From Promethearchaeia archaeon (lineage in GTDB: Archaea; Asgardarchaeota; Lokiarchaeia; Sigyniarchaeales; SOKP01): a stretch of DNA of 32,000 nucleotides. The number at the start of each line of letters is the position of its first letter. The first letter of the stretch is position 1. The notes beneath the pieces were generated by a model. The model made no database searches. It was not told the origin of the DNA and saw only the letters and a list, made by a program, of their open reading frames with translations. A program made the translations under genes and the position numbers. Location of the stretch: NCBI GenBank assembly GCA_046497275.1, contig JAWOFX010000080.1:30001-62000 (forward strand). Reading direction: 5' to 3'. Below are positions 9,017-28,141 of this stretch, piece after piece.

Positions 9017-9478
9017 TCACCATTTCTTATTGAATTTTTTATTAGGACCAATTTTTTTCACTCTTTCTGTTGCTGTTTTTATAAGTTTTGCAAATCTCTC
9101 TCCTTCAGCAGCAGATACCCACATAAAATTAATCCTTTCAGGTTCTATACCAAAAAATATTAATAAATCATTAAGAATTGCAAATCTCCGTCTCGCTACT
9201 AAATTGCCACTTATATAATGACAATCTCCAGGATGACATCCAGATACAACAACTCCATCCCAACCATCTAATAAACTTTTTACTATAAAAAATGGATTTA
9301 TCCTCCCAGAACAAGGAACTCTAACAATTCGTATATTTGGGGGATATTGGATTCTACTCACTCCTGCTAAATCAGCTCCCGCATAAGAACACCAATTGCA
9401 TAGAAATGCAATTATTTTCGGTTCCCATTCATCTTCTTGTTCTTTATTTACTTTTTTTTCAATACTTAATTCATTCAT
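9017..9478 (-). CDS. mvhD: MvhD/FlxD [2Fe-2S] subunit
   Basis: FLCNWCSYAGADLAG, VPCSGR, GCHPGDCHY, WVSAAEG. Confidence 0.92.
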   Translation of the reverse strand: MNELSIEKKVNKEQEDEWEPKIIAFLCNWCSYAGADLAGVSRIQYPPNIRIVRVPCSGRINPFFIVKSLLDGWDGVVVSGCHPGDCHYISGNLVARRRFAILNDLLIFFGIEPERINFMWVSAAEGERFAKLIKTATERVKKIGPNKKFNKKW

Positions 9479-9482
9479 TTTT

Positions 9483-12400
9483 TTATAACCTCCCTGTTAT
9501 CATTGCATATATTTGTTCTGAAGAGAATCCTAAAATATCAATAGCAGAACATCGGCAGTTTCCTGAACAAGCACCACAACCTTTACATAAGGCTTGATTT
9601 ACTGAAGCTACGGTTCCAAATCTTCTATCTTCTATTAATTCAATTGCGTTATAAGCACAATTTTCAACACACATTCCACATCCTACACAACGGGATAAAT
9701 CCACTTTAGCAATTTTTCCTTCCGCTTCGATTTCTTCTTTTGAAAGAATTGTACACGCTCTCGAAACCGCAGCATTTGCTTGACTTATTGAATCTTGAAT
9801 CGTTTTTGGTGCATGAGCTAAACCAGCCACAAATATTCCTTCAGTTGCAAAATCAACAGGTCGTAATTTTACATGTGCTTCCAAGAAAAAATTATCTTCG
9901 TTAATGGGTACTTTTAATAATTTTGCGAGCCTCTCATTTTGTTTGGGGGCTTCTATACCTGCACTCAAGACTAGTAAATCAGTATCTAGATTAATTAACC
10001 CTAATTTTGGAGATTTAACATTAACTTGGACTTTTTTTTCTTTTGGAATTATTTTCGGTGGATCTTTTTCATTGAACCTAATAAAAATAACCCCTTTTTC
10101 ACGTGCTTTACGATAATAGATTTCTTTAAACCCATAGGTTCTAATGTCTCTATATAAAATAACAATTTCTATATTTGGATTCTGTTCCTTTGCTAAAAGA
10201 GCATTTTTAATTGCCTCTGCACAACACATTTTACTGCAATAGGGATGTTCATCATTTCTCGATCCGACACATTGAATCATTACAATTTTTTTTTTATCTT
10301 CAATTTCACTTGTTTCATTTAAAACATATTCAAATTCAGATTGAGAAATAATTCTTAAATCTTGACCGAAACAATATTCTTTTGGTCTATATTCTTTAGC
10401 ACCTGTCGCAACTACAATTACGCCATGTTCAAAATTTTCCTTTCTATTATCCTCTCCATATTTAATTGTTGTTTTAAAATTCCCAATATACCCATCAATA
10501 TTTTCTATTTCTGCTTGGGTAAAAATATGAACTTTTGGATTTTCTTGAATTTTCTCAATTATCTCTGATAAGAATTGTTGAACGTTTCCTCCTTCAAGAG
10601 TTGTAAAAATATTTCTCGCATGTCCACCTAATTCTTTTTCTTTCTCTATTAAATAAGTTTCATATTCTTGACTAGCAAGATTTAATGCTGCAGTCAAACC
10701 ACTTATTCCTCCTCCAATTACCAATGCGTTCGGTGTAATATTTAACTTTATTCTTTCTAATGGTTGTATTTTCCTGGCTTTATTTACCGCCATTCTCACT
10801 AAATCTTTAGCTTTTTGAGTTGCGGATGCAGGATCATTCATATGTACCCAAGAACATTGATCTCTGATATTTGCCATTTGAAATAGATATCTATTTAATC
10901 CAGCCTCTCTAATCGTTTCTTGGAATAAAGGTTCATGTGTACGTGGAGTACAAGACGCAACTATAACACGATTTAAATTAAATTCTTCTATTTTTTCTTT
11001 TATTAATGTTTGAGTATCTGCTGAACATGTATAAAGATTTCTATCTGCTAAAACTACATCTTGTAAATTATTAGCATATTCCGTTACCTCTGGAACATCT
11101 ACTGTACCTCCAATATTAATACCACAATGACAGATAAATACTCCAATTCTAGGAGGTTGACCTGCAACAAATTTTTCTGGAGGAAGAGATTTTTCAGTAA
11201 TTAAGGTACCTCTTTGTTGATATAATAATGAATCGACACATCCAGCAGCAGCACTGGCTTGCGTTACAGTTTCAGGGATATCCTTTGGGGAAGAAAATGC
11301 CCCGCAAACATAAATTCCTGTTCTTGTTGTCTCTACTGGATTAAATAAATTCGTTTGAGCAAATTTAAATTCATTTAAATTAATATTAAATTTTTCAGAA
11401 AGATACTCAGCATCATGGGGGGGATTTAACCCTATAGCTAAAACAACCATATTAAAAATTTCTTCTTTAATTTTTCCTGCTTCATCTTCATATCGTATTT
11501 TTAGATCATTTGTAAAACGATTTTCTTCAATTGATGCTATTCTGCTCCTAATGTATCGAACTCCATATTCATCTTTTGCTCGTTCAATGTATTTATCAAA
11601 ATCTTTGCCATATGCTCTAATATCCATCGTAAAAATAGTTGGATTAACTTGATGCATATGTTCTTTGGCAATTACTGCTTCTTTTGCTGTATACATGCAG
11701 CAAACCGAGGAACAATAAGGTTGCCCCTCTTTAAGATCTCTTGATCCAATACATTGAAGGAAAGCAATTTTTTCTGGAACATCTCCATCAGAAGGGCGTA
11801 ATATCTTTCCGCTATAAGGACCACTTGCACTTAAGATCCTTTCGAATTGTATACTTGTAACTACATTGTCATAAATACCGTATCCATATCTTTTAATATT
11901 ACTTGGATCAAATTCATCAAATCCGGGTGAGAGAATTATTGCTCCAATATCTAATTCTAACTTTTCATCTTCTAAATCATATTCTACAGCATTTGCTTTA
12001 CAAACCCCTTCACATACTCCACAACCAATACAATATTCTTTATTTATCGCATAAACTAACGGAACTGCTTGAGGATATTTGACGTAAGTAGCCTTGCAAA
12101 TCGATAAATCTTCATTAAAGATATCAATTGCTTCAACAGGACATTTTTGACCACATACACCGCAGCCTGTACATTTTTCTTGATTGATATGGATAGATTT
12201 TTTTAAAATATGTGCTTTAAAACTTCCAGCTTCTCCTTCAACCTCAATAATTTGACAATTAATCAATAAATCAATGTTCTGATGTCTTCCAGTCTCAACC
12301 AATTTAGGAGAGACTATACACATAGCACAGTCATTTGTGGGAAACGTTTTGTCAAGCTGGGCCATCACTCCTCCGATACTTGTTGTTTTTTCCACGAGAT

Positions 12401-12491
12401 AAACTTTAAATCCAGATTCGGCTAAATCGAGGGCCGCCTGACAACCGCCAATTCCAGCTCCGACCACCATCACTGCTCCAACTTTTTCCAT
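9483..12491 (-). CDS. hdrA: Double-module heterodisulfide reductase subunit A (1002 aa)
   Basis: GAGIGG, DKTFPTNDCAMC, inserted 2x[4Fe-4S], CSSVCCMY; second module GVFICHCGINIG, VASCTPRTHE, GGGISG, CSKMCC, C-terminal 2x[4Fe-4S]. Confidence 0.92.
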   Translation of the reverse strand: MEKVGAVMVVGAGIGGCQAALDLAESGFKVYLVEKTTSIGGVMAQLDKTFPTNDCAMCIVSPKLVETGRHQNIDLLINCQIIEVEGEAGSFKAHILKKSIHINQEKCTGCGVCGQKCPVEAIDIFNEDLSICKATYVKYPQAVPLVYAINKEYCIGCGVCEGVCKANAVEYDLEDEKLELDIGAIILSPGFDEFDPSNIKRYGYGIYDNVVTSIQFERILSASGPYSGKILRPSDGDVPEKIAFLQCIGSRDLKEGQPYCSSVCCMYTAKEAVIAKEHMHQVNPTIFTMDIRAYGKDFDKYIERAKDEYGVRYIRSRIASIEENRFTNDLKIRYEDEAGKIKEEIFNMVVLAIGLNPPHDAEYLSEKFNINLNEFKFAQTNLFNPVETTRTGIYVCGAFSSPKDIPETVTQASAAAGCVDSLLYQQRGTLITEKSLPPEKFVAGQPPRIGVFICHCGINIGGTVDVPEVTEYANNLQDVVLADRNLYTCSADTQTLIKEKIEEFNLNRVIVASCTPRTHEPLFQETIREAGLNRYLFQMANIRDQCSWVHMNDPASATQKAKDLVRMAVNKARKIQPLERIKLNITPNALVIGGGISGLTAALNLASQEYETYLIEKEKELGGHARNIFTTLEGGNVQQFLSEIIEKIQENPKVHIFTQAEIENIDGYIGNFKTTIKYGEDNRKENFEHGVIVVATGAKEYRPKEYCFGQDLRIISQSEFEYVLNETSEIEDKKKIVMIQCVGSRNDEHPYCSKMCCAEAIKNALLAKEQNPNIEIVILYRDIRTYGFKEIYYRKAREKGVIFIRFNEKDPPKIIPKEKKVQVNVKSPKLGLINLDTDLLVLSAGIEAPKQNERLAKLLKVPINEDNFFLEAHVKLRPVDFATEGIFVAGLAHAPKTIQDSISQANAAVSRACTILSKEEIEAEGKIAKVDLSRCVGCGMCVENCAYNAIELIEDRRFGTVASVNQALCKGCGACSGNCRCSAIDILGFSSEQIYAMITGRL

Positions 12492-13326
12492 CTTTTTTAT
12501 CCCTCCATCACGTTTAGATAAATTGGTGTAATTCCTACAATCTTATCCATAGCAATTTGGCCTCGTTGCTTCAATACTAAAATATGATCCAAGATTTCAC
12601 TTGGCTTTATTTCAAACTCGATTGCTAAATCTTTTACTGATTTAGGATCTTTCTTTAATGAACCGAGAATACGATGGCGCACATATTCATCATAGATTGC
12701 TTGTTCAAAGAGTTCTTGAAATTCTTCTTCCGGAATTTTATCTCCATACACATTTTGTTGCTCTGTTAATGCTCTTTCTCTGCCTACTAACGCTCTCATT
12801 CTATAACTCGTAGATGCCATCTCTAATGCTTTTATTTTATCAATTAATTTATCTTTAGCTTTTCCAGAATTTATTGGGGATGGACCTAGATCTTTTATGT
12901 GGTTTGTAAAATTCGTAATTATTTCAGCAAATCGATTTCCTTCTGATGCTGAAACCCATTCTAATCGAATTCGATTTTCAAAACCTATAAAGCTTAAGAA
13001 TTGTGTAATCATCTCATATTTTATTTTCGCTTCATAATTGCCTTCAAGATAATGGCAATCACCAGGATGGCATCCCATCACAATAATACCATCTATTCCA
13101 GTTAGAAATCCTTCAAAGATAAATTCAGGATCTACTCTCCCACTGCACATTACTCGAATTACTCTCAAGTTCGGGGGATATTGTATCCTACTCACTCCTG
13201 CTAAGTCAGCTCCCGCATATGAGCACCAATTACATAGAAATCCCAAAATTTTCGGTTCATAACTCATGCGATTTCTCTCCCTCCTAAGGCATATATTTCT
13301 GATAAAATTTGCTCATTTGTAAAATG
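12295..13326. repeat. Duplicated block, copy 1 (hdrA 3' tip + mvhD-wHTH + hdrA 5' end)
   Basis: Aligns to 16079..17110 at a constant offset of 3784 bp; 13146..13305 is identical to 16930..17089. Confidence 0.9.
12497..13267 (-). CDS. mvhD: MvhD domain fused to a C-terminal winged-HTH-like domain (256 aa)
   Basis: MvhD cysteine motifs in aa 1-130; tail RHRILGSLKKDPKSVKDLAIEFEIKPSEILDHILVLKQRGQI has wHTH spacing. Confidence 0.85.
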   Translation of the reverse strand: MSYEPKILGFLCNWCSYAGADLAGVSRIQYPPNLRVIRVMCSGRVDPEFIFEGFLTGIDGIIVMGCHPGDCHYLEGNYEAKIKYEMITQFLSFIGFENRIRLEWVSASEGNRFAEIITNFTNHIKDLGPSPINSGKAKDKLIDKIKALEMASTSYRMRALVGRERALTEQQNVYGDKIPEEEFQELFEQAIYDEYVRHRILGSLKKDPKSVKDLAIEFEIKPSEILDHILVLKQRGQIAMDKIVGITPIYLNVMEG

Positions 13327-16275
13327 CTTAATCTCAATTGCTCTTTCTGGACAAGAAGCTCCACAAAGACCACAACCTTTACAGAGTGCTTCTTGAACAT
13401 AAGCATAACCTTCCTCATCCTTGACTATAGCATTGAAAGGGCATATTCTAACACAGATTTTGCACCCAGTGCAAAGATCTTTATCAACATGCGATACAAT
13501 ACCTCCTACTATTAATGAATCTTTCGATAAAATTGTCGTTCCCCTTGATACAGCGGAATTGGCTTGTGCAATACTTTCACTGATTGTTGACGGACCATGA
13601 GCTGTCCCACATAAAAAAATACCTTCAGTAGCAAAATCTACAGGTCTGAGTTTAACATGTGCTTCTAAGAAGAAATTATCTTCATTTAAAGGGACTTTTA
13701 ACATTTTTGCTAAAGATAAATTGTCTTCTACAGGAGCTACTATTCCTGTACTTAATATTAATAGATCACATTTAACAGAAATTTCTCCTAATTTTGGAGA
13801 TTCAAGATTAATTGTTAAATCTTTTTTATTTTTAACAATTTCCGGAGGTTTTTCATCATCAAATCTTATAAATATGACTCCCTTCTCTCGGGCTATTCGG
13901 TAATATTTCTCTTTAAATCCATATGTTCTTATATCACGATAAAAAATAATAACTTCTATTTTTGGATTGATTGTTTTAATTTTTATAGCGTTTTTAATTG
14001 CATCAGAACAACATATTCTGGAACAATATGGATGATCTTCATTTCTTGATCCGACACATTGAATCATAGCAATAGAATTTTTATCTTTAAGGTCTGAGGA
14101 TGAGGTTAATAGAATCTTTTCTAATTCTACTTGTGTAATAACGCGTGAATCCTCATTATATAAATATTCTGATGGAACATATTGGTCAGCTCCGGTTGCA
14201 AGAATAATAATACCGTGTTCTATTTCTTCTTTTTCTTTTTTATTTTTAATAGTTGTTTTAAAATTCCCTATATATCCATCAATTTTTTCTATAGTCGAAT
14301 TTAAAAAAACATGAATTTTATTATTATTTTTAATATTTTCAATTAAATTCTCAATAAATTCATCTACTTGAATACCCTCAAGAGTTTTATGAATGTTTCG
14401 AGCAAAACCTCCTAAAACATTTTCTTTTTCAACTAAATAAGTATCAAATCCTTGTTTGGCAAAATTAATTGCTGCAGACATTCCACTAATTCCTCCTCCT
14501 ATTAATAGAGCACTTTGAGTTATATCTAACGGCATTTCCGCTATCGGAGATGTTTTTCTAACTTTCGCTATTGCCATTCTCACTAAATCTTTTGCTTTTT
14601 CAGTCGCTCTCTGTGGTTCTTTCATATGAACCCATGAACATTGATCTCTGATATTTGTCATTTGAAATAAATATCTGTTTAATCCTGCTTCTCTAATTGT
14701 TTCTTGAAAAAGTGGTTCATGAGTACGGGGTGTGCAGGAAGCAACAACGACTCGATTGATTTTATACTCCTCAATTTTTTCTTTTATTAAGGACTGTGTA
14801 TCAGCTGAACATGTATAAAGATTCCTATCTGCTAGTACTACATTTGGCAAGGTTTTTGCATATGCGACGACTTCTGGAACATTTACAGTCCCTCCAATAT
14901 TGATACCACAATGGCAAATAAAAACTCCTATCTTAGGAGGTTCATTTGAAATATCTTTCTCTTTTGGATATTTTTTCTTAGTCACTAATGTATTTCTCGT
15001 AGATGAAAGAACGGTATTAACTTGTCCCGCTGCAGCACTCGCTTCAATCACAGTTTCAGGTATATCCTTGGGAGATGAACATGCCCCACAGACAAAAATA
15101 CCTGATCTAGTAGTATTAACTGGAGAAGAGAGATTAGTTTTTAAAAAGCCATATTCATTTAATTCAATATTGAATATTTTTGCTATTTTTTTCGCGTCAT
15201 TAGGAGGATTTAATCCAACCGCTAAAACCACCATATTAAAAACCTCTTCTTTAATCTCTCCTTTCTCATTTTCATATTTTATTTTTAAATCATGAGTATA
15301 AGGATTTTCTTCAATTGATGCCACTCTGCTTCTGATATACCGAACTCCATATTCATCTTTCGCTCGTTCAATATATTTATCAAAATCTTTACCATATGCT
15401 CTAATATCCATTGTAAATATAGTAGGCTCTAAACTTTCCATATGTTCTTTGGCGATTACAGCCTCTTTTGCTGTATACATACAACACACAGAAGAACAAT
15501 ATTCATTTCCAAATTTGAGATCACGTGAGCCCACACATTGGATGAATGCGACTTTTTTCGGGACATCTCCATCAGAAGGTCTTAAAACTTTTCCCGAGTA
15601 GGGGCCACTAGCACTTAAAATACGTTCAAATTGAATACTGCTGAGCACATTTTTATATTTCCCAAATCCCAAATTTTTATTTAAAGTAGGTTCAAACTCC
15701 TCAAATCCAAGAGCTAAAATGATTGAACCAACATTTATTTTAGAATTTTTATCTTTTAAATCATAATTAATAGCGTTCGCTTTACAAACTCCTCTACAAA
15801 TCCCACATCCAATACAGATATCTTTGTTAATTGCATATACCAAAGGAACTGCTTGGGGATATTTTACTGAAGCTGCTTTATTTAATGATAACCCCTCATT
15901 GAATATGTCAACTGCTTCAGTTGGACATTCTTGACCACAAACTCCACATCCTGTACATTTTTCTTGATCTATATATAAAGTTTTTTCAATTATTTCAACA
16001 TTAAAATTACCAGATTCACCAGAAATATTTTCAATCTCAGAGTTTATTTTAATTTCAATATTTGGATGTCGTCCTGCTTCAACCAATTTAGGAGAGACTA
16101 TACAAATTGCACAATCATTCGTAGGAAACGTTTTGTCAAGCTGGGCCATCACTCCTCCGATGCTTGTTGTTTTTTCCACGAGATAAACTTTAAATCCAGA
16201 TTCGGCTAAATCTAGGGCCGCTTGACAACCGCCAATTCCAGCTCCGACCACCATCACTGCTCCAACTTTTTCCAC
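13264..16275 (-). CDS. hdrA: Double-module heterodisulfide reductase subunit A (1003 aa)
   Basis: Same motif order as 9483..12491; GTG start after a GGAGGGA SD. Confidence 0.92.
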   Translation of the reverse strand: MEKVGAVMVVGAGIGGCQAALDLAESGFKVYLVEKTTSIGGVMAQLDKTFPTNDCAICIVSPKLVEAGRHPNIEIKINSEIENISGESGNFNVEIIEKTLYIDQEKCTGCGVCGQECPTEAVDIFNEGLSLNKAASVKYPQAVPLVYAINKDICIGCGICRGVCKANAINYDLKDKNSKINVGSIILALGFEEFEPTLNKNLGFGKYKNVLSSIQFERILSASGPYSGKVLRPSDGDVPKKVAFIQCVGSRDLKFGNEYCSSVCCMYTAKEAVIAKEHMESLEPTIFTMDIRAYGKDFDKYIERAKDEYGVRYIRSRVASIEENPYTHDLKIKYENEKGEIKEEVFNMVVLAVGLNPPNDAKKIAKIFNIELNEYGFLKTNLSSPVNTTRSGIFVCGACSSPKDIPETVIEASAAAGQVNTVLSSTRNTLVTKKKYPKEKDISNEPPKIGVFICHCGINIGGTVNVPEVVAYAKTLPNVVLADRNLYTCSADTQSLIKEKIEEYKINRVVVASCTPRTHEPLFQETIREAGLNRYLFQMTNIRDQCSWVHMKEPQRATEKAKDLVRMAIAKVRKTSPIAEMPLDITQSALLIGGGISGMSAAINFAKQGFDTYLVEKENVLGGFARNIHKTLEGIQVDEFIENLIENIKNNNKIHVFLNSTIEKIDGYIGNFKTTIKNKKEKEEIEHGIIILATGADQYVPSEYLYNEDSRVITQVELEKILLTSSSDLKDKNSIAMIQCVGSRNEDHPYCSRICCSDAIKNAIKIKTINPKIEVIIFYRDIRTYGFKEKYYRIAREKGVIFIRFDDEKPPEIVKNKKDLTINLESPKLGEISVKCDLLILSTGIVAPVEDNLSLAKMLKVPLNEDNFFLEAHVKLRPVDFATEGIFLCGTAHGPSTISESIAQANSAVSRGTTILSKDSLIVGGIVSHVDKDLCTGCKICVRICPFNAIVKDEEGYAYVQEALCKGCGLCGASCPERAIEIKHFTNEQILSEIYALGGREIA

Positions 16276-17110
16276 CTTTTTTATCCCTCCATCACATTTA
16301 GATAAATTGGTGTAATTCCTACAATCTTATCCATAGCAATTTGACCTCGTTGCTTCAATACTAAAATATGATCCAAAATTTCACTTGGCTTTATTTCAAA
16401 CTCAATCGCTAAATCTTTTACTGATTTTGGATCTTTCTTTAATGAAACGAGAATACGATGGCGAACATATTCATCATAAATTGCTTTAATGAAGAGTTCC
16501 TTAAATTCTTCCTCCGGAATTTTTTCTCCATACACATTTTGTTGCTCTGTTAATGCTCTTTCTCTGCCTACTAATGCCCTCATTCTATAACTCGTAGATG
16601 CCATCTCTAATGATTTTATTTTATCAACCAATTCGATATTCTTCTTCCTATTTTGTAGAGGAGAGGGTCCTAAATCTTTGATGTGATTTGTAAAATTCGT
16701 AATTATTTCGGCAAATCGATTTCCCTCTGATGCTGAGACCCATTCTAATCTGATTCGATCTTCAAAGCCAACAAAACTTAAGAATTGTGTGATCATTTCA
16801 TATTTTATTTCTGCTTCATAATTGCCTTCAAGATAATGACAATCTCCCGGATGGCATCCCATCACAATAATACCATCTATTCCACTTAGAAATCCTTGAA
16901 AGATGAATTCGGGATCCACTCTTCCACTACACATTACTCGAATTACTCTCAAGTTCGGGGGATATTGTATCCTACTCACTCCTGCTAAGTCAGCTCCCGC
17001 ATATGAGCACCAATTACATAGAAATCCCAAAATTTTCGGTTCATAACTCATGCGATTTCTCTCCCTCCTAAGGCATATATTTCTGATAATATTTGCTCAT
17101 TTGTGAAATG
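16079..17110. repeat. Duplicated block, copy 2
   Basis: Paralogous to 12295..13326. Confidence 0.9.
16281..17051 (-). CDS. mvhD: MvhD-wHTH fusion, second copy (256 aa)
   Basis: About 20 aa differences from 12497..13267 by manual alignment (~92% identity), nine of them in the linker after GPSP. Confidence 0.85.
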   Translation of the reverse strand: MSYEPKILGFLCNWCSYAGADLAGVSRIQYPPNLRVIRVMCSGRVDPEFIFQGFLSGIDGIIVMGCHPGDCHYLEGNYEAEIKYEMITQFLSFVGFEDRIRLEWVSASEGNRFAEIITNFTNHIKDLGPSPLQNRKKNIELVDKIKSLEMASTSYRMRALVGRERALTEQQNVYGEKIPEEEFKELFIKAIYDEYVRHRILVSLKKDPKSVKDLAIEFEIKPSEILDHILVLKQRGQIAMDKIVGITPIYLNVMEG

Positions 17111-18733
17111 TTTGATTTGGATTGCTTTCTTTGTACAAGAGGCACCACAAAGACCACATCCTTTACATAATGCTTGAATAATTTCTATTTCGTCCTCTTC
17201 ATTTTTTCTTATTGCTCCATAAGGGCATATTTCAATACAAATTTCGCATCCTTTACATAATTCTTTATTCCATTCTGGAATATAAGCGGTACTTCCTTGG
17301 ATCTCTAAAGTATCATGAGAAAGTATTGTACTTGCTCTTGAAGCCGCTGCTCTACCTTGAGTTAACGCCTGACCGATATCAGTTGGCCATTTAGCAGAAC
17401 CGCATAAAAATACCCCATCTGTAGCAAAATCTATAGGTCTTAATTTTACATGTGCTTCTAAGAAAAAGTTATTCTCTTCCAAAGGAATTTTTAAAAGTTG
17501 AGCAAGATTTTTATTATTCTCATTTGCTATTAAAGGAGTAGATAAAACCAGTAAATCATAGGGAATACTCATATCTCTTCCTAAATACTCATTAAAAACG
17601 TGAACTTCTTCTTTTTTCACTATTGGCTCTTTTTCAGGTGAATATTTAATGAATAATATTCCTAATTCTCTTGTTTTTCTATAATATTGTTCATTTCTCG
17701 TACCTGGAGTATATATATCTCTAAATAAAATGCTTATATTTGCTTCTGGATTTTTTTCTTTAATAATTAAAGAATTTTTTAAAGCAGTCATACAACAGAT
17801 ACTTGAGCAATAATTTCTCTCTTCACAGCGAGCCCCAACACATTGTATCATTACTATGTTGTTCTTGTCAAAGGATTCTTCTTTTAATATTTTCTCTAAT
17901 TCAAGTTGAGTGACTCTCACTTTCCCATCATAACCATATATATTTACAGGTTGAAAGGTTGATGCGCCTGTAGCAACTATAATTGCTCCCACTTGTAATT
18001 CCTGGATTTTACTATTTTGTTCAATAATTACATTAAAATTTCCTAAATATCCATTGATTTCTGAAACCGTTGATGATGTTAAAATCGTTAAATTATTCGC
18101 ATCTTCTATCTGATTTTTTAAACCTTCAAGGAATTTTGATGCTTTAATATTATCGGGATAAATCGTATTTAATGAATTTAGCATGCCACCAATTCTCTCT
18201 TCTTTTTCTATAAGAAATGTTTCAAATCCTTGTTTACTTAAACTTAAAGCAGATGATATGCCTGAGACTCCCCCTCCAATTACAAGCGCTTTAGACTCAA
18301 TATCAATTGAGATATCCTCTAAAGGTTCTAATTTTTCTGCTTTAGAGACTCCCATCTTAATTAAATCTAATATTTTATTATAAGCTTCATTAGGATATTT
18401 TGCATGAACCCATGTACATTGATCTCGAATATTGACGAAATTAAAGAGATATTTATTTAAGCCTGCCTCTTGGACAGTTTCTCTAAATAAAGGTTCATGA
18501 GTTCTTGGAGTACAAGAGGCAACAACAACACGGTTTAAATTATGTTCCTCTATAGCTTTTTTTATAGAATTTAACCCATTTTCAGAGCACGTATAGAGGT
18601 TATCCTCACTATATGCAACTTTTGGAAATTCTTTGATCTCTTCAGCCAATTTTTTACAATCAACTAAGCCCCCGATGTTAGAACCGCAATGACATACAAA
18701 AACCCCTATTCTAATATCATCATTATTAGTAAT
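17048..18733 (-). CDS. hdrA: HdrA second-module protein (C-terminal half of a split double-module HdrA); probable ATT start
   Basis: The frame stays open 28 codons upstream of the track's TTG and encodes ITNNDDIRIGVFVCHCGSNIGGLVDCKK, the conserved HdrA N-terminal CxC domain. No ATG/GTG/TTG lies between the in-frame TGA (18740-18742) and this motif; GGAGGTGA sits 6 nt before ATT at 18733. Confidence 0.8.
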   Translation of the reverse strand: MTNNDDIRIGVFVCHCGSNIGGLVDCKKLAEEIKEFPKVAYSEDNLYTCSENGLNSIKKAIEEHNLNRVVVASCTPRTHEPLFRETVQEAGLNKYLFNFVNIRDQCTWVHAKYPNEAYNKILDLIKMGVSKAEKLEPLEDISIDIESKALVIGGGVSGISSALSLSKQGFETFLIEKEERIGGMLNSLNTIYPDNIKASKFLEGLKNQIEDANNLTILTSSTVSEINGYLGNFNVIIEQNSKIQELQVGAIIVATGASTFQPVNIYGYDGKVRVTQLELEKILKEESFDKNNIVMIQCVGARCEERNYCSSICCMTALKNSLIIKEKNPEANISILFRDIYTPGTRNEQYYRKTRELGILFIKYSPEKEPIVKKEEVHVFNEYLGRDMSIPYDLLVLSTPLIANENNKNLAQLLKIPLEENNFFLEAHVKLRPIDFATDGVFLCGSAKWPTDIGQALTQGRAAASRASTILSHDTLEIQGSTAYIPEWNKELCKGCEICIEICPYGAIRKNEEDEIEIIQALCKGCGLCGASCTKKAIQIKHFTNEQILSEIYALGGREIA

Positions 18734-20046
18734 TAAAATTCACCTCCTTTAATAATCTCTGCTGCGCTTGATGCAGCAGCACTCGCCTCGGCCACTGTTT
18801 GTGGGATATCCATAGGTTCATGAGCACATCCACATGTAAAAATGCCTTCTCTTGAAGTCTCTATTGGAAAATAAGGATCTGTCTTGATAAAATCAAAATC
18901 ATCTAATTGAATACTAAGAACATTAGCTAATTCTTGTATTCCTTTTGGTGGAACTATACAAGTAGCTAAAACAACTAAATCAACCTTCAATTTTTGGATT
19001 TCTGAAGTATCAAAATTTTCATAAGTTATAATGGGATTCTCTTTCTTATCTATACTAATTTCAGGAATTTTACTTTTAATATAATTAATATTATATTCAT
19101 TTTCCCCTCTTTCTATAAATTTAGTAAATCCTTTTCCCCCTGCTCTAATATCAATATAAAAAATATAAGATTCAATTTCATTATCGTGTTCATAGGCTAT
19201 CATTGCTTCTTTTGAAGTATACATACAACAAATAGAAGAACAATAATCTTTGTTTCTTTTATCTCTAGATCCAACACACTGAATATATGCTATCTTTTTT
19301 GGCTTCTTTCCATCTGAAAGCCTTTTAATATGCCCTCCTTGGGGTCCAGAAGCACTTAATAATCTTTCGAATTCTAAGGCAGTAATAACATTTCTAAATT
19401 CTTTATAACCATAGTGGTTTAGTGGGATTGAATCTTCTATAACATCATAACCCACAGAAACGATTATAGAGCCAATGTTATCCAATTTTAATATTTCTTC
19501 TTTTTGATCAAAATCTATTGCATCTTTATCACAATTCTTTTCGCATATTCGACACGCTTCTTTTGTGAACCATAAACAATGTTCTGAATCTATAGTCATT
19601 ACAGCTGGAACACCTTGTAGATAATATAAATATATGGCTTTACGGTGTCTTAAACCTCTATCAAATTCATCCTCTACGCGCATTGGACATTTTTCAGCAC
19701 ACTCACCACAATTAATACACGCATCTTCTTTTACATACCGTGGCTTCTTTAAAATTTCAATAGAATAATTTCCCTTCTCTCCATTAATTTTTGTTATTTC
19801 TGAAAGCGTATGGAGAGTAATATTAGGATGTCGATAACATTCAGACAATTTTGGGGCTAAAATGCAGATTGAACAATCATTTGTGGGAAAAGTTTTGTCT
19901 AATTGGGCCATTCTGCCACCAATACAGGGTTGCTTTTCTATTAAATGAACATGAATATTCATATCTGCTAAATCTAAGGCAGATTGAATTCCTCCAATTC
20001 CTCCGCCAACAACAACTACACTTTTAGAATTTTTCAAGGATCTCAC
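18733..20046 (-). CDS. hdrA: HdrA first-module protein (N-terminal half of a split double-module HdrA)
   Basis: GGGIGG, DKTFPTNDCSICIL, inserted ferredoxin, CSSICCMY; lacks the CxC N-terminal domain and the C-terminal ferredoxin. Confidence 0.88.
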   Translation of the reverse strand: MRSLKNSKSVVVVGGGIGGIQSALDLADMNIHVHLIEKQPCIGGRMAQLDKTFPTNDCSICILAPKLSECYRHPNITLHTLSEITKINGEKGNYSIEILKKPRYVKEDACINCGECAEKCPMRVEDEFDRGLRHRKAIYLYYLQGVPAVMTIDSEHCLWFTKEACRICEKNCDKDAIDFDQKEEILKLDNIGSIIVSVGYDVIEDSIPLNHYGYKEFRNVITALEFERLLSASGPQGGHIKRLSDGKKPKKIAYIQCVGSRDKRNKDYCSSICCMYTSKEAMIAYEHDNEIESYIFYIDIRAGGKGFTKFIERGENEYNINYIKSKIPEISIDKKENPIITYENFDTSEIQKLKVDLVVLATCIVPPKGIQELANVLSIQLDDFDFIKTDPYFPIETSREGIFTCGCAHEPMDIPQTVAEASAAASSAAEIIKGGEF

Positions 20047-20086: not shown

Positions 20087-20965
20087 TTATTTAAGAAAAT
20101 TGAGTTCTTGCAGTAAAGCAGTAGGTTTAGCTCTATGATAATTGAACCCTAGTTCGTTTGGATTTATCCCAAATGCCAAAGCAACCAATTCGGATAAATA
20201 AAAAATCGGAACATCATAATTAGTTTCATTTAATTTATTTAACTCCCTTTGATTAAAATCAAATTGTTGGTAACACGCGGGACATACTAACGCCACACAA
20301 TTGGCTCCAGAATTAATGATAGATTCAAGTTTGTTCCCAATCATGAGAAGGGATAAATCTTTATCGGATTTATCAACAGGATTGCCACAACATTCTAATT
20401 TCAACTCATATTCTATAGTTTCAGCTCCAAGAGCTTGAATTATGCTGTCTATAGTAAACGGTTCAAAAGGATCATCCCAATCTATTATTTCTGATGGTCT
20501 TAAATAATGGCAACCATAATGCACAGCTACCTTAAACCCATCTAAAGGATTTACAAGATTTTTCTTAATCAATTCTAAATTTTCATATAAAACCTGACCA
20601 AAATGCTTTACACTTGTTAAACCATCATATTCTTTTCCGACTTTTTTTAATATTTTATTAGTCTTTGCCTTGACTTCTTCATCTTTCTTGATATGATAAT
20701 TTACTCCCTTAAGCGTTTCGACACATCCAGAACAAAGCGAAATAATCCCACCGTTTCCATTATTGCTTAAACTTAAGTTTCTAGCCCCCAATGCTAACCA
20801 GGTATTTTGATCAATCTGCTCTATCCCTGTTGGGTCCGGACAACAACTAAACCCATCAACATCATTAAGTTTTATCCCCATCTTGTCAAAAATCTTTCGA
20901 GCAGAAGCCTCAAGGAAAGGAAGCCTGGCTGGGATTACGCATCCCAAAAATAAATCATACTCCAT
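20087..20965 (-). CDS. hdrB: Heterodisulfide reductase subunit B (two CCG domains)
   Basis: FLGC, SCCP, LCSGC, HYGCH, ECCG, VCPAC. ATG at 20965 directly follows the hdrC stop. Confidence 0.93.
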   Translation of the reverse strand: MEYDLFLGCVIPARLPFLEASARKIFDKMGIKLNDVDGFSCCPDPTGIEQIDQNTWLALGARNLSLSNNGNGGIISLCSGCVETLKGVNYHIKKDEEVKAKTNKILKKVGKEYDGLTSVKHFGQVLYENLELIKKNLVNPLDGFKVAVHYGCHYLRPSEIIDWDDPFEPFTIDSIIQALGAETIEYELKLECCGNPVDKSDKDLSLLMIGNKLESIINSGANCVALVCPACYQQFDFNQRELNKLNETNYDVPIFYLSELVALAFGINPNELGFNYHRAKPTALLQELNFLK

Positions 20966-20966
20966 C

Positions 20967-21464
20967 TCATTTCTCACCTAATTTAATTTTATTTTCTATT
21001 CCCGTTTCTTTAAAAATTGGCTCTAATTCCTTCATCTCTGCTGTTTTAATCTCCGGGAGATTCATCTTTTCTCGTCTAGATAAAATAGATTTTGAGAAGG
21101 GGATTGCAATACCTTCGTTAACAATAGCTTGGGCTTGTAATAAAAATGCTTCTGGCAATTTACCTCTCTCAAAGCAACGGTTTTTAATCACGGAAAAGAT
21201 TTCTGTTAATTCTACTTTTTGAGGACATAATTCTAAACATTTTTGACATGTGGAACATAACCACACATTTGGGTTTTGCTCCTCAATTAACTCCTCTTCA
21301 AATCCAAGAAGTGCAAGCTCTATTATTTTCCTTGGATTATATTTTCCTTTAGTCATTAACGCTACAGGGCATCCGCTTGAACACGTAGAACATTGATAAC
21401 AATAACTTAATGACGCATTATACTGCAAAATCTCATTTCTAAATTCAAAATTAATTAAACTCAA
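20967..21464 (-). CDS. hdrC: Heterodisulfide reductase subunit C
   Basis: CYQCSTCSSGCP and WLCSTCQKCLELCP; GGGTGA SD before TTG. Confidence 0.92.
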   Translation of the reverse strand: MSLINFEFRNEILQYNASLSYCYQCSTCSSGCPVALMTKGKYNPRKIIELALLGFEEELIEEQNPNVWLCSTCQKCLELCPQKVELTEIFSVIKNRCFERGKLPEAFLLQAQAIVNEGIAIPFSKSILSRREKMNLPEIKTAEMKELEPIFKETGIENKIKLGEK

Positions 21465-21563: not shown

Positions 21564-21833
21564 CTATTTTTGACCTAATTGCTTATCAATATCAATGAAT
21601 ATGGGGATTTGTTCCTCATCCTTCTGAATTATCACCTTAAGGATTCCATCTTCGATTTTTGTACTAATTGGCGTTATTTTTTTCGGTTTTGGCTTCCCTG
21701 ATTTTTGTTGTTGCATATTCAAACATGTATGCTCTTCATCATAAAGATTACATCTGGAACAACAAAACCCAATAGGCATATATCCCACTATACTGCACTT
21801 TTCATAATTGTCGCAATTACAATTATTACACAA
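21564..21833 (-). CDS. Small 8-Cys-domain protein, paralog 3
   Basis: MCNNCNCDNYEKCSIVGYMPIGFCCSRCNLYDEEHTC plus a 52-aa tail; GAGGTGA SD; TTG start. Confidence 0.8.
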   Translation of the reverse strand: MCNNCNCDNYEKCSIVGYMPIGFCCSRCNLYDEEHTCLNMQQQKSGKPKPKKITPISTKIEDGILKVIIQKDEEQIPIFIDIDKQLGQK

Positions 21834-21867
21834 CTTCTTGGCCTCACCTCTCTAATTTAAGGAATTT

Positions 21868-22098
21868 TTACGGAAAATTCTCTAAATCTCTGTCGGATAT
21901 TTTTAATTTTTCTAAGAACTTTTGAGCAATTTCAATATCTTCTTTATGATCCTCTATTTTTTTCTGGACTTGCTCTTTTAATCTCTTACAAGTCGTTCCC
22001 TCTTCATAAAAATTACAATTTGGACAACAAAATCCCAAGGGTATATTCCCTACAATTGAACATTGATATTGGTTATCACATTGGCAATAGTTACAAAT
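21868..22098 (-). CDS. Small 8-Cys-domain protein, paralog 2 (not in ORF track; probable ATT start)
   Basis: Manual translation ICNYCQCDNQYQCSIVGNIPLGFCCPNCNFYEEGTTCKRLKEQVQKKIEDHKEDIEIAQKFLEKLKISDRDLENFP* (76 aa), colinear with both neighbours. Confidence 0.75.
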   Translation of the reverse strand: MCNYCQCDNQYQCSIVGNIPLGFCCPNCNFYEEGTTCKRLKEQVQKKIEDHKEDIEIAQKFLEKLKISDRDLENFP

Positions 22099-22120
22099 GA
22101 TACATCACTCAGGTTTTTGA

Positions 22121-22369
22121 TTATGGATATAATTCAACCGATTTTTCTAATCCACTTTCTAATGTTATGCCAGTTTTCACTTGAAATGGCTCGGGAAGAA
22201 CCTCGAACATAACCATTTCTTCCACTTTCGGTTTTATCACTTGGCTTATATAATGTGAACACGTATGCCGCTGGTCGTAATTCACGCATTTCTCACAGCA
22301 CGCGCCGAAATGCAAATGTCCGACTATAGAGCAAAGATAGGAATTTTCACATTCGCAATTATTACACAT
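22121..22369 (-). CDS. Small 8-Cys-domain protein, paralog 1
   Basis: MCNNCECENSYLCSIVGHLHFGACCEKCVNYDQRHTC plus tail. ATG at 22369 after GAGTGA is preferred over GTG 22378. Confidence 0.8.
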   Translation of the reverse strand: MCNNCECENSYLCSIVGHLHFGACCEKCVNYDQRHTCSHYISQVIKPKVEEMVMFEVLPEPFQVKTGITLESGLEKSVELYP

Positions 22370-22397: not shown

Positions 22398-22455
22398 TTG
22401 TGATTTTTTTATCACAAGAATCTTAGTGATATATTATTCAAGTCACCTATATAAA
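22398..22455 (-). promoter_or_regulatory. Putative promoter (TATA box) and palindromic operator of the Cys-rich gene trio
   Basis: Minus-strand TTTATATA at 22455-22448; TTGTGAT-N6-ATCACAA palindrome at 22398-22417, overlapping TATCAC-N10-GTGATA at 22410-22431. Confidence 0.45.
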
Positions 22456-22969: not shown

Positions 22970-23379
22970 TTACTTGATAATTTCCTTAAATTCTTGAATT
23001 ATTTTTAGTGTATCCTCTTGAAAGTTTTTTAAATAGGAAAAGATCTTTTCAGAATTGACCTTAATATATTGATGTACTAAAAAATTTCTTAAATTCTTAA
23101 ATTCTTAAATTCTTTAATTAAATCATAGTTTTCAAGTTTTGGCTTTAAAAGTTCAAGGATCGAATCTTCAGATGTCGGAGGTCCTAAGTTAAAAAATTTC
23201 ACTAATTGAATACAAATTTGAATTATTGCTTCTATTATGTTTTGCATATTTCGCTCTATCGCAGCCTGAAGTTTTAAATCTCCGAGGAACACTTCTTTGT
23301 TCTCTGGTGTCCATAGCCCTAATAAATTTAATTGATTTTCAATAAAAGCAATTCTTTGAAGAATTCGTTCATAAGCCAT
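22970..23379 (-). pseudogene. HEPN (DUF86/HepT-like) RNase toxin frameshifted by an 8-bp duplication
   Basis: Removing one GAATTTAA unit gives a 133-aa ORF ending KEFKNLRNFLVHQYIKVNSEKIFSYLKNFQEDTLKIIQEFKEIIK*, with the R-x4-H-x-Y motif restored. Confidence 0.85.
23086..23114. repeat. Tandem 8-bp repeat (TTCTTAAA x3.6) inside the HEPN gene
   Basis: ttcttaaa-ttcttaaa-ttcttaaa-ttctt read directly. Confidence 0.9.
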
Positions 23380-23749
23380 TTTTGACCGGCTCCAAATATA
23401 ATTCATAATATGGTCGGAATGATTCCCATTCTTTTATAATATTAATGAAAATATCAAATATTTGAGAGTAGTCCTTGTAAAATAGAATTTTTCCTTTAAT
23501 CGCCTCTTTCGCGATAATTATAGGCATATCGGTTAGAAAATGCGCATCAAACTTTTCTGGGAACTGTAAAAGATATTTTAAAGATTTGGAATTTGAGTTA
23601 GGCTTTCTAACTATAGCAAGATCGATATCATTATAATTATCAGAATTAAGTGCGCTCCCGTATAAAATGGCAGCTAGAATATCGTCATCTTGCTTTAGTT
23701 CTGTAATTATTCTGTACAATTTTTTTTTATCATTATCAGAGAGATACAT
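23369..23749 (-). CDS. Minimal nucleotidyltransferase (MNT) antitoxin
   Basis: LYGSAL...NDIDL (GS..DxD); its stop overlaps the HEPN ATG; ATG at 23749. Confidence 0.88.
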   Translation of the reverse strand: MYLSDNDKKKLYRIITELKQDDDILAAILYGSALNSDNYNDIDLAIVRKPNSNSKSLKYLLQFPEKFDAHFLTDMPIIIAKEAIKGKILFYKDYSQIFDIFINIIKEWESFRPYYELYLEPVKNGL

Positions 23750-23921
23750 ACCCAATCACAACGTACTTTTTTGCATATATTAATCTGAAAAAGACTCGTG
23801 AAATTTCAATATTAAATATGAGTAAAAACTTAAGTTGATATATATAATCATAAAATGCTCTTATATTTAAAGGATCTATAAAAATGTTTAGAGTTATAAT
23901 TTTCTATTAGGAATTGTAGAA

Positions 23922-24188: not shown

Positions 24189-24608
24189 TTATTTACTAAA
24201 AGATATATTCTTTAACTTTAAGATAAGGAAAGAATTTTTGAAGATTTTTTCGAGGGTATGCAAGGTTATTTTCCTGTTTAAATCGTATGCTACAATGAGA
24301 CAATCATTATAAGAGAGGATGTTTGAATGAGAACATTTTAATTCACCTGCCTTAAACATCAGTGATTTATTAAGAGATACGAGTTTAACTGGCATATTGG
24401 TTAAGAACGATGCGACTCGTATTTCTGCTTGAACTCTTCCCAATAATTTACAGATATGATAATATACTTCAACCATTAAAGGTTAAATAATATGAGCTGT
24501 AAGTTCTTTGCTTTTTATTTTGTTCATTAAATTAAGAATTTCATCAGGGGGACTCTCTGAATAATATTGAGTAATAATCCCCGTATCTATACATACTACG
24601 GTTTTCAC
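24189..24608 (-). pseudogene. vapC: PIN-domain (VapC-like) nuclease with an in-frame TAA
   Basis: GTG 24608 after an AAGGAGAG SD gives VKTVVCIDTGII...HII*PLMVEVYYH...YNDCLI; stop at codon 42 (24483-24485); acidic PIN residues are present. Confidence 0.75.
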
Positions 24609-24651
24609 AAACTCTCCTTCTCTAATTCCTCTTCCCTGATTTTTGAAAAAT

Positions 24652-24723
24652 AACATAAACCAAAATTCATTATCGAGAAAAAGATAATTTTAGCAAAAAA
24701 CGACCAGAAACTTGCATAATATA
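24652..24723 (+). repeat. 72-bp direct repeat R1, copy b
   Basis: See 22523..22594. Confidence 0.85.
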
Positions 24724-24782
24724 TTGAAATTACGGGATTGATTCATGGAATCAGTAGTGGTGTTTTAAATGACAAAGAACAT

Positions 24783-25148
24783 CTAGATTTTTCGAATTCT
24801 TAAGGTTTTTCCATCTGAAACAATGAATTTGTTTTTTATAATGATTTTTTGTGTATTTAATTGGTTAAGAATATGGTGTATTACAGAGAAAATAAATTCC
24901 GATGATTGTGGATGTATTCTAATTAAAATTACTCCATAGGGACGTGTACCCTTACGATATGCCAAATAACCAAAATCCTTATCCATTGTGATAATCGGTC
25001 TCTTATATTTCTTACTTAATTCTATTATTTTTTCATCGTCAATCCCCCTAAAATCTTCTCTAATAGAAAGGATTTCAAAATCTAAGTTTCTTAATCTAAA
25101 TATTACTGAATTTGGAATGTTTTCATCCATTATTAGTTTAAAAGACAT
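24783..25148 (-). CDS. DUF5615 (VapC45-like) PIN-like protein
   Basis: LIMDENIP, DDEKII, IITMDKDFG, GVILIR. Confidence 0.85.
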   Translation of the reverse strand: MSFKLIMDENIPNSVIFRLRNLDFEILSIREDFRGIDDEKIIELSKKYKRPIITMDKDFGYLAYRKGTRPYGVILIRIHPQSSEFIFSVIHHILNQLNTQKIIIKNKFIVSDGKTLRIRKI

Positions 25149-25199
25149 TATAGATTTCTCCTAAATTACATATTACAAAATAAGAGACGACGAATAGTT

Positions 25200-25427
25200 T
25201 TATGGAAAAATTTTAAAAACTTCCTCTTCACGTACTACTTTGGAGGCATATTTAAGAACTGCCAGTATATCTTCTCTTTTAATTTCATATTCTTCTTGGA
25301 TCTGGTTAAAATTCCAACCTGAGGCTAATAATTCCAAAATAAAATCAACAGAAAGACGAGTACCCTTTATGCAAGGTTTTCCCGCACATTTTTTCTCATC
25401 AATAACGATTCTTTCTGGAATATTCAT
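25200..25427 (-). CDS. DUF433 (VapB45-like) putative antitoxin
   Basis: RIVIDEKKCAGKPCIKGTRLSVDFILELLASG...EDILAVLKYA; ATG at 25427. Confidence 0.88.
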   Translation of the reverse strand: MNIPERIVIDEKKCAGKPCIKGTRLSVDFILELLASGWNFNQIQEEYEIKREDILAVLKYASKVVREEEVFKIFP

Positions 25428-25841
25428 ATACTCTAATTGGAAGAACCAAAATAAATAGTTTTCTATTATTTCCAATAAGATTCAATAAGATAAGATATCA
25501 AATGTTCTTAGACTACTCGTTAAATTAGAATTTTTTACTTATAGTCGCATGTTTTTTAGTCTAAATTGGAAAGATTGGTTTCCAAGCTACTAAAGAATCC
25601 ACCATGCAGCTCAAAAACACTTTCATAAGATTCCCTGTATAATATAAATTAATAATAATCTAATCTAATTGAAATATTCCAATTAAAAATCTTGTTAATT
25701 CGATTTAAATCCAAATTTTGAATTGAAAATTAATTAAATCTTTAGAGATCATTCCAAATCGATTTTCTTTTTACAGAAGGATTAAAGGAGTATAAGTAGG
25801 TAAAAACATATAGGAGTGATTCATATTCTTGTAATGAAAAA

Positions 25842-27333: not shown

Positions 27334-27777
27334 CTAGTTATTTAATATCCATGAATTCTTAGATCTTCGAATAGTATCATTTTCTAACAATTTTTTAACT
27401 CGTTTTTTATATTTTTTTCCCACACCCTCATCATATAATAAAATTCCGTTATATAGTGCCTCTAAAGTAATTGGATGGAATTCCTTGACCATTTCATCAA
27501 ATTTATCTATATTATATACAAAAAAGTCGATTCCACCAGATGAAATATCATACATTTTTCTCAATTTTTCAAAATAATCTCCTTCTATAGAATCACTCAC
27601 AATTAACAAATCAATGTCACTTCTATAATTGAAATTCCCTTTAGCGCTCGATCCAAAAAGAATGATGAATTCTGCTTGATATTGTGAATAAAATTTTTTC
27701 AAAAATTCAATTAATTTATCCCTTTTTGGATGACTTTTCAAGAGTTCTGTTATTTTATTTAATTTTTTCTTGTACAT
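27334..27777 (-). CDS. MNT nucleotidyltransferase antitoxin
   Basis: ILFGSSAKG...SDIDLLIV; overlaps the upstream HEPN gene. Confidence 0.88.
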   Translation of the reverse strand: MYKKKLNKITELLKSHPKRDKLIEFLKKFYSQYQAEFIILFGSSAKGNFNYRSDIDLLIVSDSIEGDYFEKLRKMYDISSGGIDFFVYNIDKFDEMVKEFHPITLEALYNGILLYDEGVGKKYKKRVKKLLENDTIRRSKNSWILNN

Positions 27778-28141
27778 ATTCTAATATTTCTTTTGCTAAT
27801 TTTATTGCATCTAGTGCTTGCTGCTTAGAAAATTTTTCAGAAGGATGCCCACTTGTAAAGGCGTCGGGATATCTTGTAGATATATAATACAAATTTAGAG
27901 TTTTGCTATTATCTAAGATTTTTTCCGGAATTTTAATCTTTTTTTCTAACTCTTCTATTAAATCCACTAAATCATGACCCCATAAAAAAATATTTATGTA
28001 TTCCCCCAAGGCTTTTAATGCCTTTTCCGCTGTCTGTTGTGCTAAAAAGCAAGACCAAGAAAAATCATTTGTATCTAAAAGATGATTTGCCGCTTCTAAA
28101 TCTGATTTTCCTTGCTCTAACCAATCCTTACTTCGATCCAT
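27755..28141 (-). CDS. HEPN domain protein (WLEQA..DL/AEKALKA/GHDL/RYPD type)
   Basis: DWLEQGKSDLEAA, CFLAQQTAEKALKA, WGHDL, YISTRYPD. Confidence 0.88.
   Translation of the reverse strand: MDRSKDWLEQGKSDLEAANHLLDTNDFSWSCFLAQQTAEKALKALGEYINIFLWGHDLVDLIEELEKKIKIPEKILDNSKTLNLYYISTRYPDAFTSGHPSEKFSKQQALDAIKLAKEILEYVQEKIK

Follow-up and report, generated by a model that had tools for sequence, protein, structure and literature searches.

Upstream of a long Hdr-Flx operon in the genome of a Promethearchaeia archaeon lie three small co-oriented genes whose products begin with the same cysteine-rich head. The question raised by this locus was whether these proteins work with the enzyme complex that the operon encodes and, if so, in what capacity. 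The locus is contained in a stretch of 32,000 nucleotides (contig JAWOFX010000080.1, positions 30,001 to 62,000), here called the window, and all positions are counted from its first nucleotide. Models of how the Asgards conserve energy and live in syntrophy currently give a central place to the Hdr-Flx and MvhADG-Hdr complexes (PMC7015854; bioRxiv 10.1101/826495). The published Asgard work covers the FlxABCD-HdrABC genes and does not mention the eight-cysteine (8-Cys) proteins. An initial interpretation of the DNA, designated the sequence-only reading, had proposed that the proteins consist of a metal- or redox-sensing head on variable adaptor tails and form a sensor or chaperone system for an operon with a very large demand for iron and sulfur. 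We know of no established physiological partner or high-potential substrate of Hdr-Flx in non-methanogenic Asgards. The comparative analysis reported here indicated, as far as can be judged from sequences, that the trio proteins are an Asgard-specific family and probably a new small metal-binding partner of Hdr-Flx-FrhB.

Three genes with a common head

The three genes encode the following proteins.

Positions 22121 to 22369, minus strand: paralogue 1, 82 amino acids, ATG start (22369); 8-Cys head and a tail with VLPEPFQVK and the C-terminal end ELYP; from the translation and head alignment
Positions 21868 to 22098, minus strand: paralogue 2, 76 amino acids, ATT start (22098); 8-Cys head and a charged helical tail ending in ENFP; from the translation
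Positions 21564 to 21833, minus strand: paralogue 3, 89 amino acids, TTG start (21833); 8-Cys head, Lys-rich linker and a beta-meander tail (PISTxIExGxLKVxI...IPIxIDxxKQL); the hdrC-proximal, core member

The translations and their alignment bore out the sequence-only reading of three co-oriented genes with a gap-free, 37-residue, 8-Cys head and unrelated tails. The head comprised the first 37 residues of each protein and its invariant residues were C2, C5, C7, C13, S14-I15-V16-G17, G22, C24, C25, C28, Y31, T36 and C37, plus N3 and N9. The tails could not be aligned, and the overall identity of about 33% came entirely from the head. The tail of paralogue 3 has no cysteine.

Two of the three start codons are not ATG, as might be expected if the open reading frames were spurious or decaying and had no function. 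In the case of paralogue 2, an in-frame TGA lies three codons upstream of the ATT, and no ATG, GTG or TTG is available in frame. On the other hand, a Shine-Dalgarno-like GAG(G)TGA motif precedes each of the three starts by 6-10 nt, and the ATT start was retained in the orthologue of paralogue 2 from a genome of the same genus (G305, L077:471), while the L006 and L010 orthologues use GTG at the same codon. Among 72 distinct genes of the family, the codon before the first cysteine was ATG in 61, GTG in 3, TTG in 2, ATT in 3 and ATC in 3. The six ATT/ATC genes (22096-22098 in the window, L077:471, L011, L018, L020 and L080) have no canonical in-frame start upstream, and each has a Shine-Dalgarno-like motif. 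Moreover, a survey of 379 Asgard genomes at least 70% complete detected the head, with no internal stops, in 107 genomes (101 of the 128 from the window's own family and 5 of the 250 elsewhere), which is far more than chance. With frames that stay open in more than 100 genomes and conserved tails (see below), the spurious origin of the genes is effectively refuted.

Distribution and anatomy of the family

A profile of the head, built from 27 sequences, was searched against 1.84 billion representative proteins and recovered only 64 clusters. The named cluster members were all Asgard, with divergent members labelled Helarchaeota and Hodarchaeota; the sole known-family match was a triple-YHS protein (P0157, E 9e-4). 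With the exception of the latter and of one repetitive 1515-residue protein, all were 49-110 amino acids long, and the head began at residue 1 or close to it, unless preceded by a short extension, probably an annotation error. Paralogue 3 had 90 full-length homologues with 45-100% identity, of which the named ones were all from metagenome-assembled genomes (MAGs) labelled Lokiarchaeota, Promethearchaeota or Thorarchaeota.

The loci carry 1-3 tandem copies. The hdrC-proximal type, with its PISTxIExGxLKV...IDLQKxL tail, was present in every positive locus, while the extra copies bear several other tail types. The sequence-only reading of a conserved head on variable tails therefore holds for the family, with a correction for the hdrC-proximal tail, which cannot count as a disposable adaptor: no other tail of the family is as well conserved as this one, with 50-77% identity over the full length.

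Within the head, the spacing C5-x-C7 is fixed, while the C2-C5, C7-C13 and C28-C37 intervals admit insertions or deletions. Degenerate duplicates of the core paralogue (L013:1180, L026:1167 and P0145) have kept C5, C7, C13, C25 and the beta-meander tail and have lost C2, C24, C28 and C37. The simplest interpretation of this loss, which is suggested by the sequences, is that the head consists of two separable four-cysteine sets, one of which is dispensable.

Many non-core members end in [FY]-P and many contain LPxxFC[LVM]K (P0098, P0104, P0106, P0108-P0110, P0115, P0117, P0121, P0123 and P0136 have one or both); the tails of paralogues 1 and 2 (22121-22369 and 21868-22098) belong with these. 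In paralogue 1, the cysteine of the motif is replaced by glutamine (FQVK). Proteins resembling its orthologues and having the LPxxFC[LVM]K...[FY]P tail include P0110 and a protein from the same-genus genome G305 (L077:243). These short sequences may be docking motifs.

Association with the Hdr-Flx-FrhB genes

The operon downstream of the trio has the following organization.

Positions 20967 to 21464, minus strand: hdrC, with Fer4_8 and relatives (Pfam), a Fer4 dicluster protein; 99 nt downstream of paralogue 3
Positions 20087 to 20977, minus strand: hdrB, with two CCG domains (Pfam)
Positions 6073 to 20046, minus strand: remainder of the Hdr-Flx operon, consisting of split hdrA, mvhD, hdrA, mvhD, hdrA and mvhD, then flxC-, flxB- and flxA-like genes (Pfam)
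Positions 4921 to 6057, minus strand: FrhB-family gene at the operon end, with FrhB_FdhB_N/C and Fer4 (Pfam)

Matches above the Pfam cut-offs identified HdrC, HdrB with both CCG domains, the FAD and Fer4 domains of HdrA, MvhD (FlpD), the FlxABC-like proteins and FrhB_N/C. The operon holds three mvhD genes and, besides the hdrA pieces, two hdrA genes encoding 1000 amino acids.

The synteny anticipated from the window recurred in related genomes. Of 29 related loci, 23 had an hdrC orthologue (61-69% identity) within 1.5 kb of a gene encoding the head, referred to as a Cys gene, with the two genes co-directional in 20 cases and divergent in 3; in genus g7, hdrC is divergent and lies 1.6 kb from the Cys genes. 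The presence of the operon's hdrB, scored as a match at E ≤ 1e-105, was compared with that of the head in 135 genomes of the window's family. Both were present in 96 genomes and neither in 23, while 8 genomes had only hdrB and 8 had only the head. Of the eight genomes with only hdrB, five are fragmented MAGs and three carry no more than a paralogue of 55-58% identity; in two of those scored as having only the head, hdrC and hdrB do adjoin the Cys genes, either broken or at the end of a contig. In the window's own genus, two genomes had both head and hdrB and five had neither. In five genomes that lack the head, the best hdrB paralogues were just 46-48% identical. A second class of hdrB, 55-62% identical to that of the window, occurs in many genomes of the family (G129, G144, G040, G177 and many of g2) and supplies the best match in genus g4.

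The link was retained in at least six other arrangements: 1) the Cys gene directly follows hdrA-mvhD-flxCBA-frhB (L085), 2) it lies beside frhB and an Lrp-type gene (lrp), opposite hdrCBA (L086 and L095), 3) it is divergent from frhB-hdrA (L084), 4) it is upstream of hdrCBA in the sister family f2 (L096), 5) on a Hodarchaeota-labelled contig, it directly precedes a cation-efflux (CDF) transporter gene, followed by an hdrD-like gene and two hdrA genes (L092), and 6) on Helarchaeota-labelled contigs, it immediately precedes an FrhB-like gene that adjoins hdrCBA (L089 and L097/98).

There were exceptions. In genus g4, a pair of Cys genes is located between an FMN reductase gene (FMN_red) and the gene for a CxxCxxCC protein, and the best hdrB (60-62% identity) is elsewhere. 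The Cys gene of one genome is beside genes for a class I pyridine-nucleotide disulfide oxidoreductase and MsrB; on two contigs, its only notable neighbour is an NMO flavoenzyme gene. One copy directly follows the genes for a CDF transporter and NifU_N (an IscU-type scaffold), and the neighbours of another were uninformative.

Taken with the domain fusion described next, the synteny and co-occurrence tie the head genes functionally to the Hdr-Flx-FrhB genes. The link is strong, and the sequence-only reading of a system for the adjacent operon is supported to this extent.

The head within FrhB-family proteins

Two FrhB-family proteins from different assemblies, P0165 and P0166, contain an internal head with all eight cysteines between FrhB_N and FrhB_C. 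The insertion amounts to roughly 45-50 residues of a host protein of 386 amino acids, and the two proteins are 73% identical over the segment queried, residues 170-232, within which the insert lies. The fused genes (L089:7282-8442 and L097:1441-2601, on Helarchaeota-labelled contigs) are each located right after a free-standing head gene and adjoin a normal FrhB gene and hdrCBA; further on, in the FrhB_C region, the fused paralogue also has a deletion of about 22 residues. Fusion of this kind, a clue of the Rosetta-stone type, suggests that FrhB-family subunits are what the head acts on or cooperates with. Fused forms of greater length were not recovered when the full-length alignment was used as query, which is weak evidence. 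The notion that a free N-terminus serves as a metal ligand was dropped since the copy inserted in FrhB is internal.

These observations also bear on the possibility that the microproteins are thiol/disulfide substrates of HdrB. Hdr-like enzymes outside the methanogens use small proteins encoded nearby, DsrC in the case of DsrK and LbpA in the case of sHdr. To our knowledge, published Asgard genomes lack methyl-CoM reductase, and the heterodisulfide CoM-S-S-CoB is presumably absent; cysteines of the head or tail, cycling between dithiol and disulfide, might replace it. The Cys genes adjoin hdrCB, one unlinked copy is beside the class I disulfide oxidoreductase and MsrB genes, and many tails carry the extra conserved cysteine of LPxxFC[LVM]K, all of which would suit a substrate. 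Like DsrC and LbpA, the head proteins are small, are encoded beside hdr-type genes and could be dedicated partners of the complex. However, they are unrelated to DsrC and LbpA in sequence or fold and have neither a redox-active C-terminal cysteine arm nor a lipoyl-lysine. Eight invariantly spaced cysteines in 37 residues, for which scarcely any secondary structure is predicted, have the appearance of metal ligands and not of a redox-active pair, and paralogue 1 of the window has lost its tail cysteine. The link also persists where the hdrB of the locus is replaced or absent and FrhB or HdrA genes adjoin, and the fusion partner is FrhB, not HdrB. A role as HdrB substrate consequently appears improbable. 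As to membership of the DsrC/TusE family (PF04358), there was no Pfam match, the tails are unrelated and the C-terminal two-cysteine arm is absent.

Comparison with known domains

The claim that the head is unrecognised was upheld. The three trio proteins had no match in Pfam or NCBIfam, and 62 diverse heads searched against Pfam at E values up to 10 gave nothing consistent and no match to YHS, TRASH or zf-FCS. Against the PDB sequences, the only match of the head profile was a 16-residue segment of the NEMO zinc finger (FCCPKC, E 0.04).

The closest likenesses were local. When the heads were aligned by hhalign with 22 YHS/TRASH domains from P-type ATPases of the same genomes, the probability was 67.6% over merely 12 columns, the FCCxxC knuckle. 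Both are small cysteine-rich modules, and the Y-F-C-x3-C-x3-F knuckle of YHS aligns with the central G-F-C-C-x2-C-x2-[YF] of the head. The TRASH ligand spacing is C-x2-C-x19-22-C-x3-C; the head has the close cysteine spacing C2-x2-C5-x18-C24-x3-C28, and variants with insertions of 1-2 residues reach x19-20. In contrast to TRASH and YHS (PF08394, PF04945), the head has four additional invariant cysteines, is shorter and acidic, and is never fused to helix-turn-helix regulators or P-type ATPases. With the AN1 zinc fingers (PF01428), hhalign gave 44% over 24 columns. The head shares their knuckle-hairpin-knuckle layout, K-C-S-[IL]-x-G...[GP]-F-x-C-x2-C, but it has valine at the position of the second cysteine of the first knuckle, lacks the conserved histidine pair and is about 7 residues shorter. 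The C-x2-H-x5-H-x-C half and a Pfam match are likewise absent, and the head does not have the C6H2 ligand set of AN1. An AN1-type zinc finger fused to an M50-like membrane metalloprotease and encoded in a different Asgard family (L099:2464-3369) was the weak non-family match of the first head profile.

Other candidates were rejected. The C-x2-C-x2-C-x3-C-P motifs of 2x[4Fe-4S] ferredoxins are absent from the sequence and there were no Fer4 matches. Rubredoxin and desulforedoxin were discarded, given eight cysteines instead of four and no match to PF00301 or PF06397 (Desulfoferrodox_N). One of the 62 heads matched Metallothio_Euk at E 0.21, which does not make the head a metallothionein; the conserved non-cysteine residues (SIVG, GF, Y and T) suggest that it probably has a defined fold instead. 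In its middle part (K-C-S-I-V-G...G-F-C-C-x2-C), the head is similar to the core of small zinc fingers with their succession of knuckle, hairpin and knuckle, and on this evidence the head would be a member of none of the families tested and new to the domain databases. A literature search for the 8-Cys head family found no description of it.

A small cysteine-rich partner of a redox complex is nevertheless a familiar kind of protein. Rubredoxin- and desulforedoxin-type Fe(Cys)4 carriers are very small, acidic proteins with a Cys4 site that are encoded beside the flavoenzymes they serve, and the C-x2-C...C-C arrangement of the head presumably recalls that of desulforedoxin.

The resemblance to metal-trafficking domains raised the alternative that the head buffers, carries or delivers zinc, iron or Fe-S clusters for maturation of Hdr-Flx-FrhB, outside catalysis, in the manner of a metallochaperone or metallothionein. 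The weak match to the FCCxxC knuckle of YHS/TRASH, the copy that directly follows the CDF and NifU_N genes, the copy directly before the CDF transporter gene that precedes hdr genes, the variable copy number and the apparently separate transcription from the hdr genes (see below) are all in accord with this proposal. Against it, there are just three such contexts and dozens of Hdr/FrhB contexts, permanent insertion into an FrhB-family enzyme is not expected of a chaperone, and TRASH/YHS membership was not found at the level of Pfam. We consider such a metal-handling role unlikely, although it deserves more weight than the role of HdrB substrate.

Structure prediction

Structure prediction did not supply a confident head. 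AlphaFold2 gave no usable head model, either for paralogue 3 with 84 homologues, where the predicted local distance difference test (pLDDT) score of the head was about 52, or for the head alone with 62 sequences, where it averaged 56.5. The tail of paralogue 3 was predicted with good confidence to form three strands and a short helix (block-mean pLDDT 81-85 over residues 51-80). When the paralogue 3 model was compared with PDB representatives and the ESM Atlas, only the tail was matched, as a generic beta-meander with Z at most 4.2, and a feature search of the ESM Atlas returned only the protein's own clusters. The predicted complex of HdrB, HdrC and paralogue 3 scored 0.01 and was not used as evidence.

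Promoter region and transcription

Two elements were located upstream of the trio.

Positions 22448 to 22455, minus strand: TATA-box-like element TTTATATA, located 79-86 nt before the paralogue 1 ATG; presumed promoter of the three genes, read from the sequence
Positions 22398 to 22417, minus strand: inverted repeat TTGTGAT-AAAAAA-ATCACAA, located 29-48 nt before the paralogue 1 ATG and about 30 nt downstream of the TATA-like element

Equivalents of the TATA-like element, of the form GATCA-N-TTTAAATA, occupy the same place in related loci, and GATCA recurs just upstream of TATA boxes. Transcription is predicted to start near 22425. The inverted repeat occurs once in the window, where 0.05 copies would be expected. 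Of 30 related loci, about 20 have an equivalent of the form TTGTGAT-N6-ATCACAA ahead of the first Cys gene, the unlinked g4 loci included (L005-L010, L012, L015, L016, L018, L023, L024, L028, L029, L032 and L033:9467 carry it). RNAalifold predicted seven pairs in the repeat, with compensatory double changes at four, and the element could be a protein operator or a hairpin in the 5'-untranslated region. In the window's own genome, eight TGTGA-N6-8-TCACA sites were found; apart from the repeat itself, just one of them has an AT-rich spacer, and this site lies inside a radA-like open reading frame; the genome-wide search defined no regulon, and the repeat is essentially unique there.

The intergenic gaps of 22 and 34 nt within the trio suggest a single transcript. 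It is separated from hdrC by an AT-rich gap of 99 nt, and in the relatives the gap is 100-500 nt or the orientation divergent, which suggests that translation of the enzyme genes need not be coupled to that of the trio. The conserved inverted repeat and what seems to be a promoter of its own make it probable that the dosage of the trio is set independently of that of the enzyme genes.

An independent promoter would also suit a redox- or metal-sensing regulator that controls transcription or translation from its own promoter and of hdr-flx, possibly through the inverted repeat. In accord with regulation, the conserved repeat is unique to this promoter and accompanies the Cys genes also at loci without linkage to hdr, the Cys genes are divergent from hdrC in two genera, and paralogue 3 has a Lys-rich linker. 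One database protein (P0094, on L094) even joins the head to a weak, partial helix-turn-helix of the GerE/LuxR type (E 2.5e-4, below the Pfam cut-off); it is encoded on a contig of 590 bp and was set aside as a possible chimera. However, neither Pfam nor NCBIfam detected a DNA-binding domain in the three trio proteins, the structural matches of the beta-meander tail were the weak, generic ones given above, there is no copy of the repeat upstream of hdrC within the window, and the interior of FrhB is not where one would expect to find the domain of a regulator. Regulation by the head proteins is, in our estimate, a rather unlikely explanation.

Other genes in the window

Upstream of the trio, toxin-antitoxin-like pairs are located at 23089-23755, 24189-25475 and 27334-28141. 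The run comprises HepT-like and MNT, a PIN fragment, DUF5615 and DUF433, and HEPN and MNT; the HepT open reading frame is short (105 amino acids). At the other side of the operon, positions 1484-4927 contain a class II ribonucleotide reductase gene that is split by an intein with a LAGLIDADG homing-endonuclease domain.

Discussion

Several observations led us to favour, with a confidence that falls a little short of an even chance, the interpretation of the head as a compact metal module of a new Cys8 type and of the microproteins as detachable redox or adaptor partners of the Hdr-Flx-FrhB complex. The main support is provided by the FrhB fusion, the recurrent flavoenzyme neighbours and the pattern of presence and absence. 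A redox or adaptor partner accounts for the same fusion and neighbours no less well than would the possible sensor or chaperone of the sequence-only reading, for which a very large iron and sulfur demand is an argument and no more. Metal binding by the head is suggested by the pattern of cysteines and by the weak local resemblance to zinc-finger knuckles. Physical contact with the complex and electron transfer, we infer, would complete the arrangement.

The mechanism envisaged for the detachable partners is as follows. The three genes would encode Asgard-specific, small cytoplasmic proteins, the Cys8 head of which most likely holds two tetrathiolate metal sites (zinc, iron or Fe-S). The family would work with the flavin-based electron-bifurcating complex Hdr-Flx-FrhB, and the free head would be a detachable version of the metal module that is built into the FrhB-family subunit of some relatives. 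As a small redox partner or adaptor, it would most likely dock and act at the FrhB/Hdr side of the complex, with docking or client specificity conferred by the beta-meander tail of paralogue 3 and by the lineage-specific tails of the extra paralogues.

A number of points weigh against this proposal. The predicted head had pLDDT scores of just 52-56, and metal binding is argued from sequence. The gaps of 100-500 nt, the divergent and the unlinked g4 copies and the lack of translational coupling to hdrC speak against a core subunit of fixed stoichiometry. Enzyme subunits do not usually vary in copy number (here 1-3) or have tails with a rapid turnover. Metal handling is suggested by some contexts (a CDF transporter twice, NifU_N once), the fusion is known from just two related contigs, and because the genomes are related, the synteny and co-occurrence counts are not independent.

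A bolder version has the head as a new redox-active metal or Fe-S module and the microproteins as the dedicated physiological acceptor or donor of electrons, or of thiols, for the Asgard Hdr-Flx-FrhB. We regard it as rather unlikely, no more probable than a regulator. If it were true, the microproteins would be the missing counterpart of the methanogen heterodisulfide or of bacterial DsrC, and the tail variants would route electrons to different clients.

The finding would define a new Cys8 domain for the domain databases, and the head family offers a clean natural set of AUU/AUC-initiated archaeal genes. For the biology of the Asgards, it provides a concrete and testable candidate partner: a lineage-specific family that co-occurs with one Hdr-Flx-FrhB cluster, stays adjacent to it through rearrangements and is fused to FrhB in some lineages.

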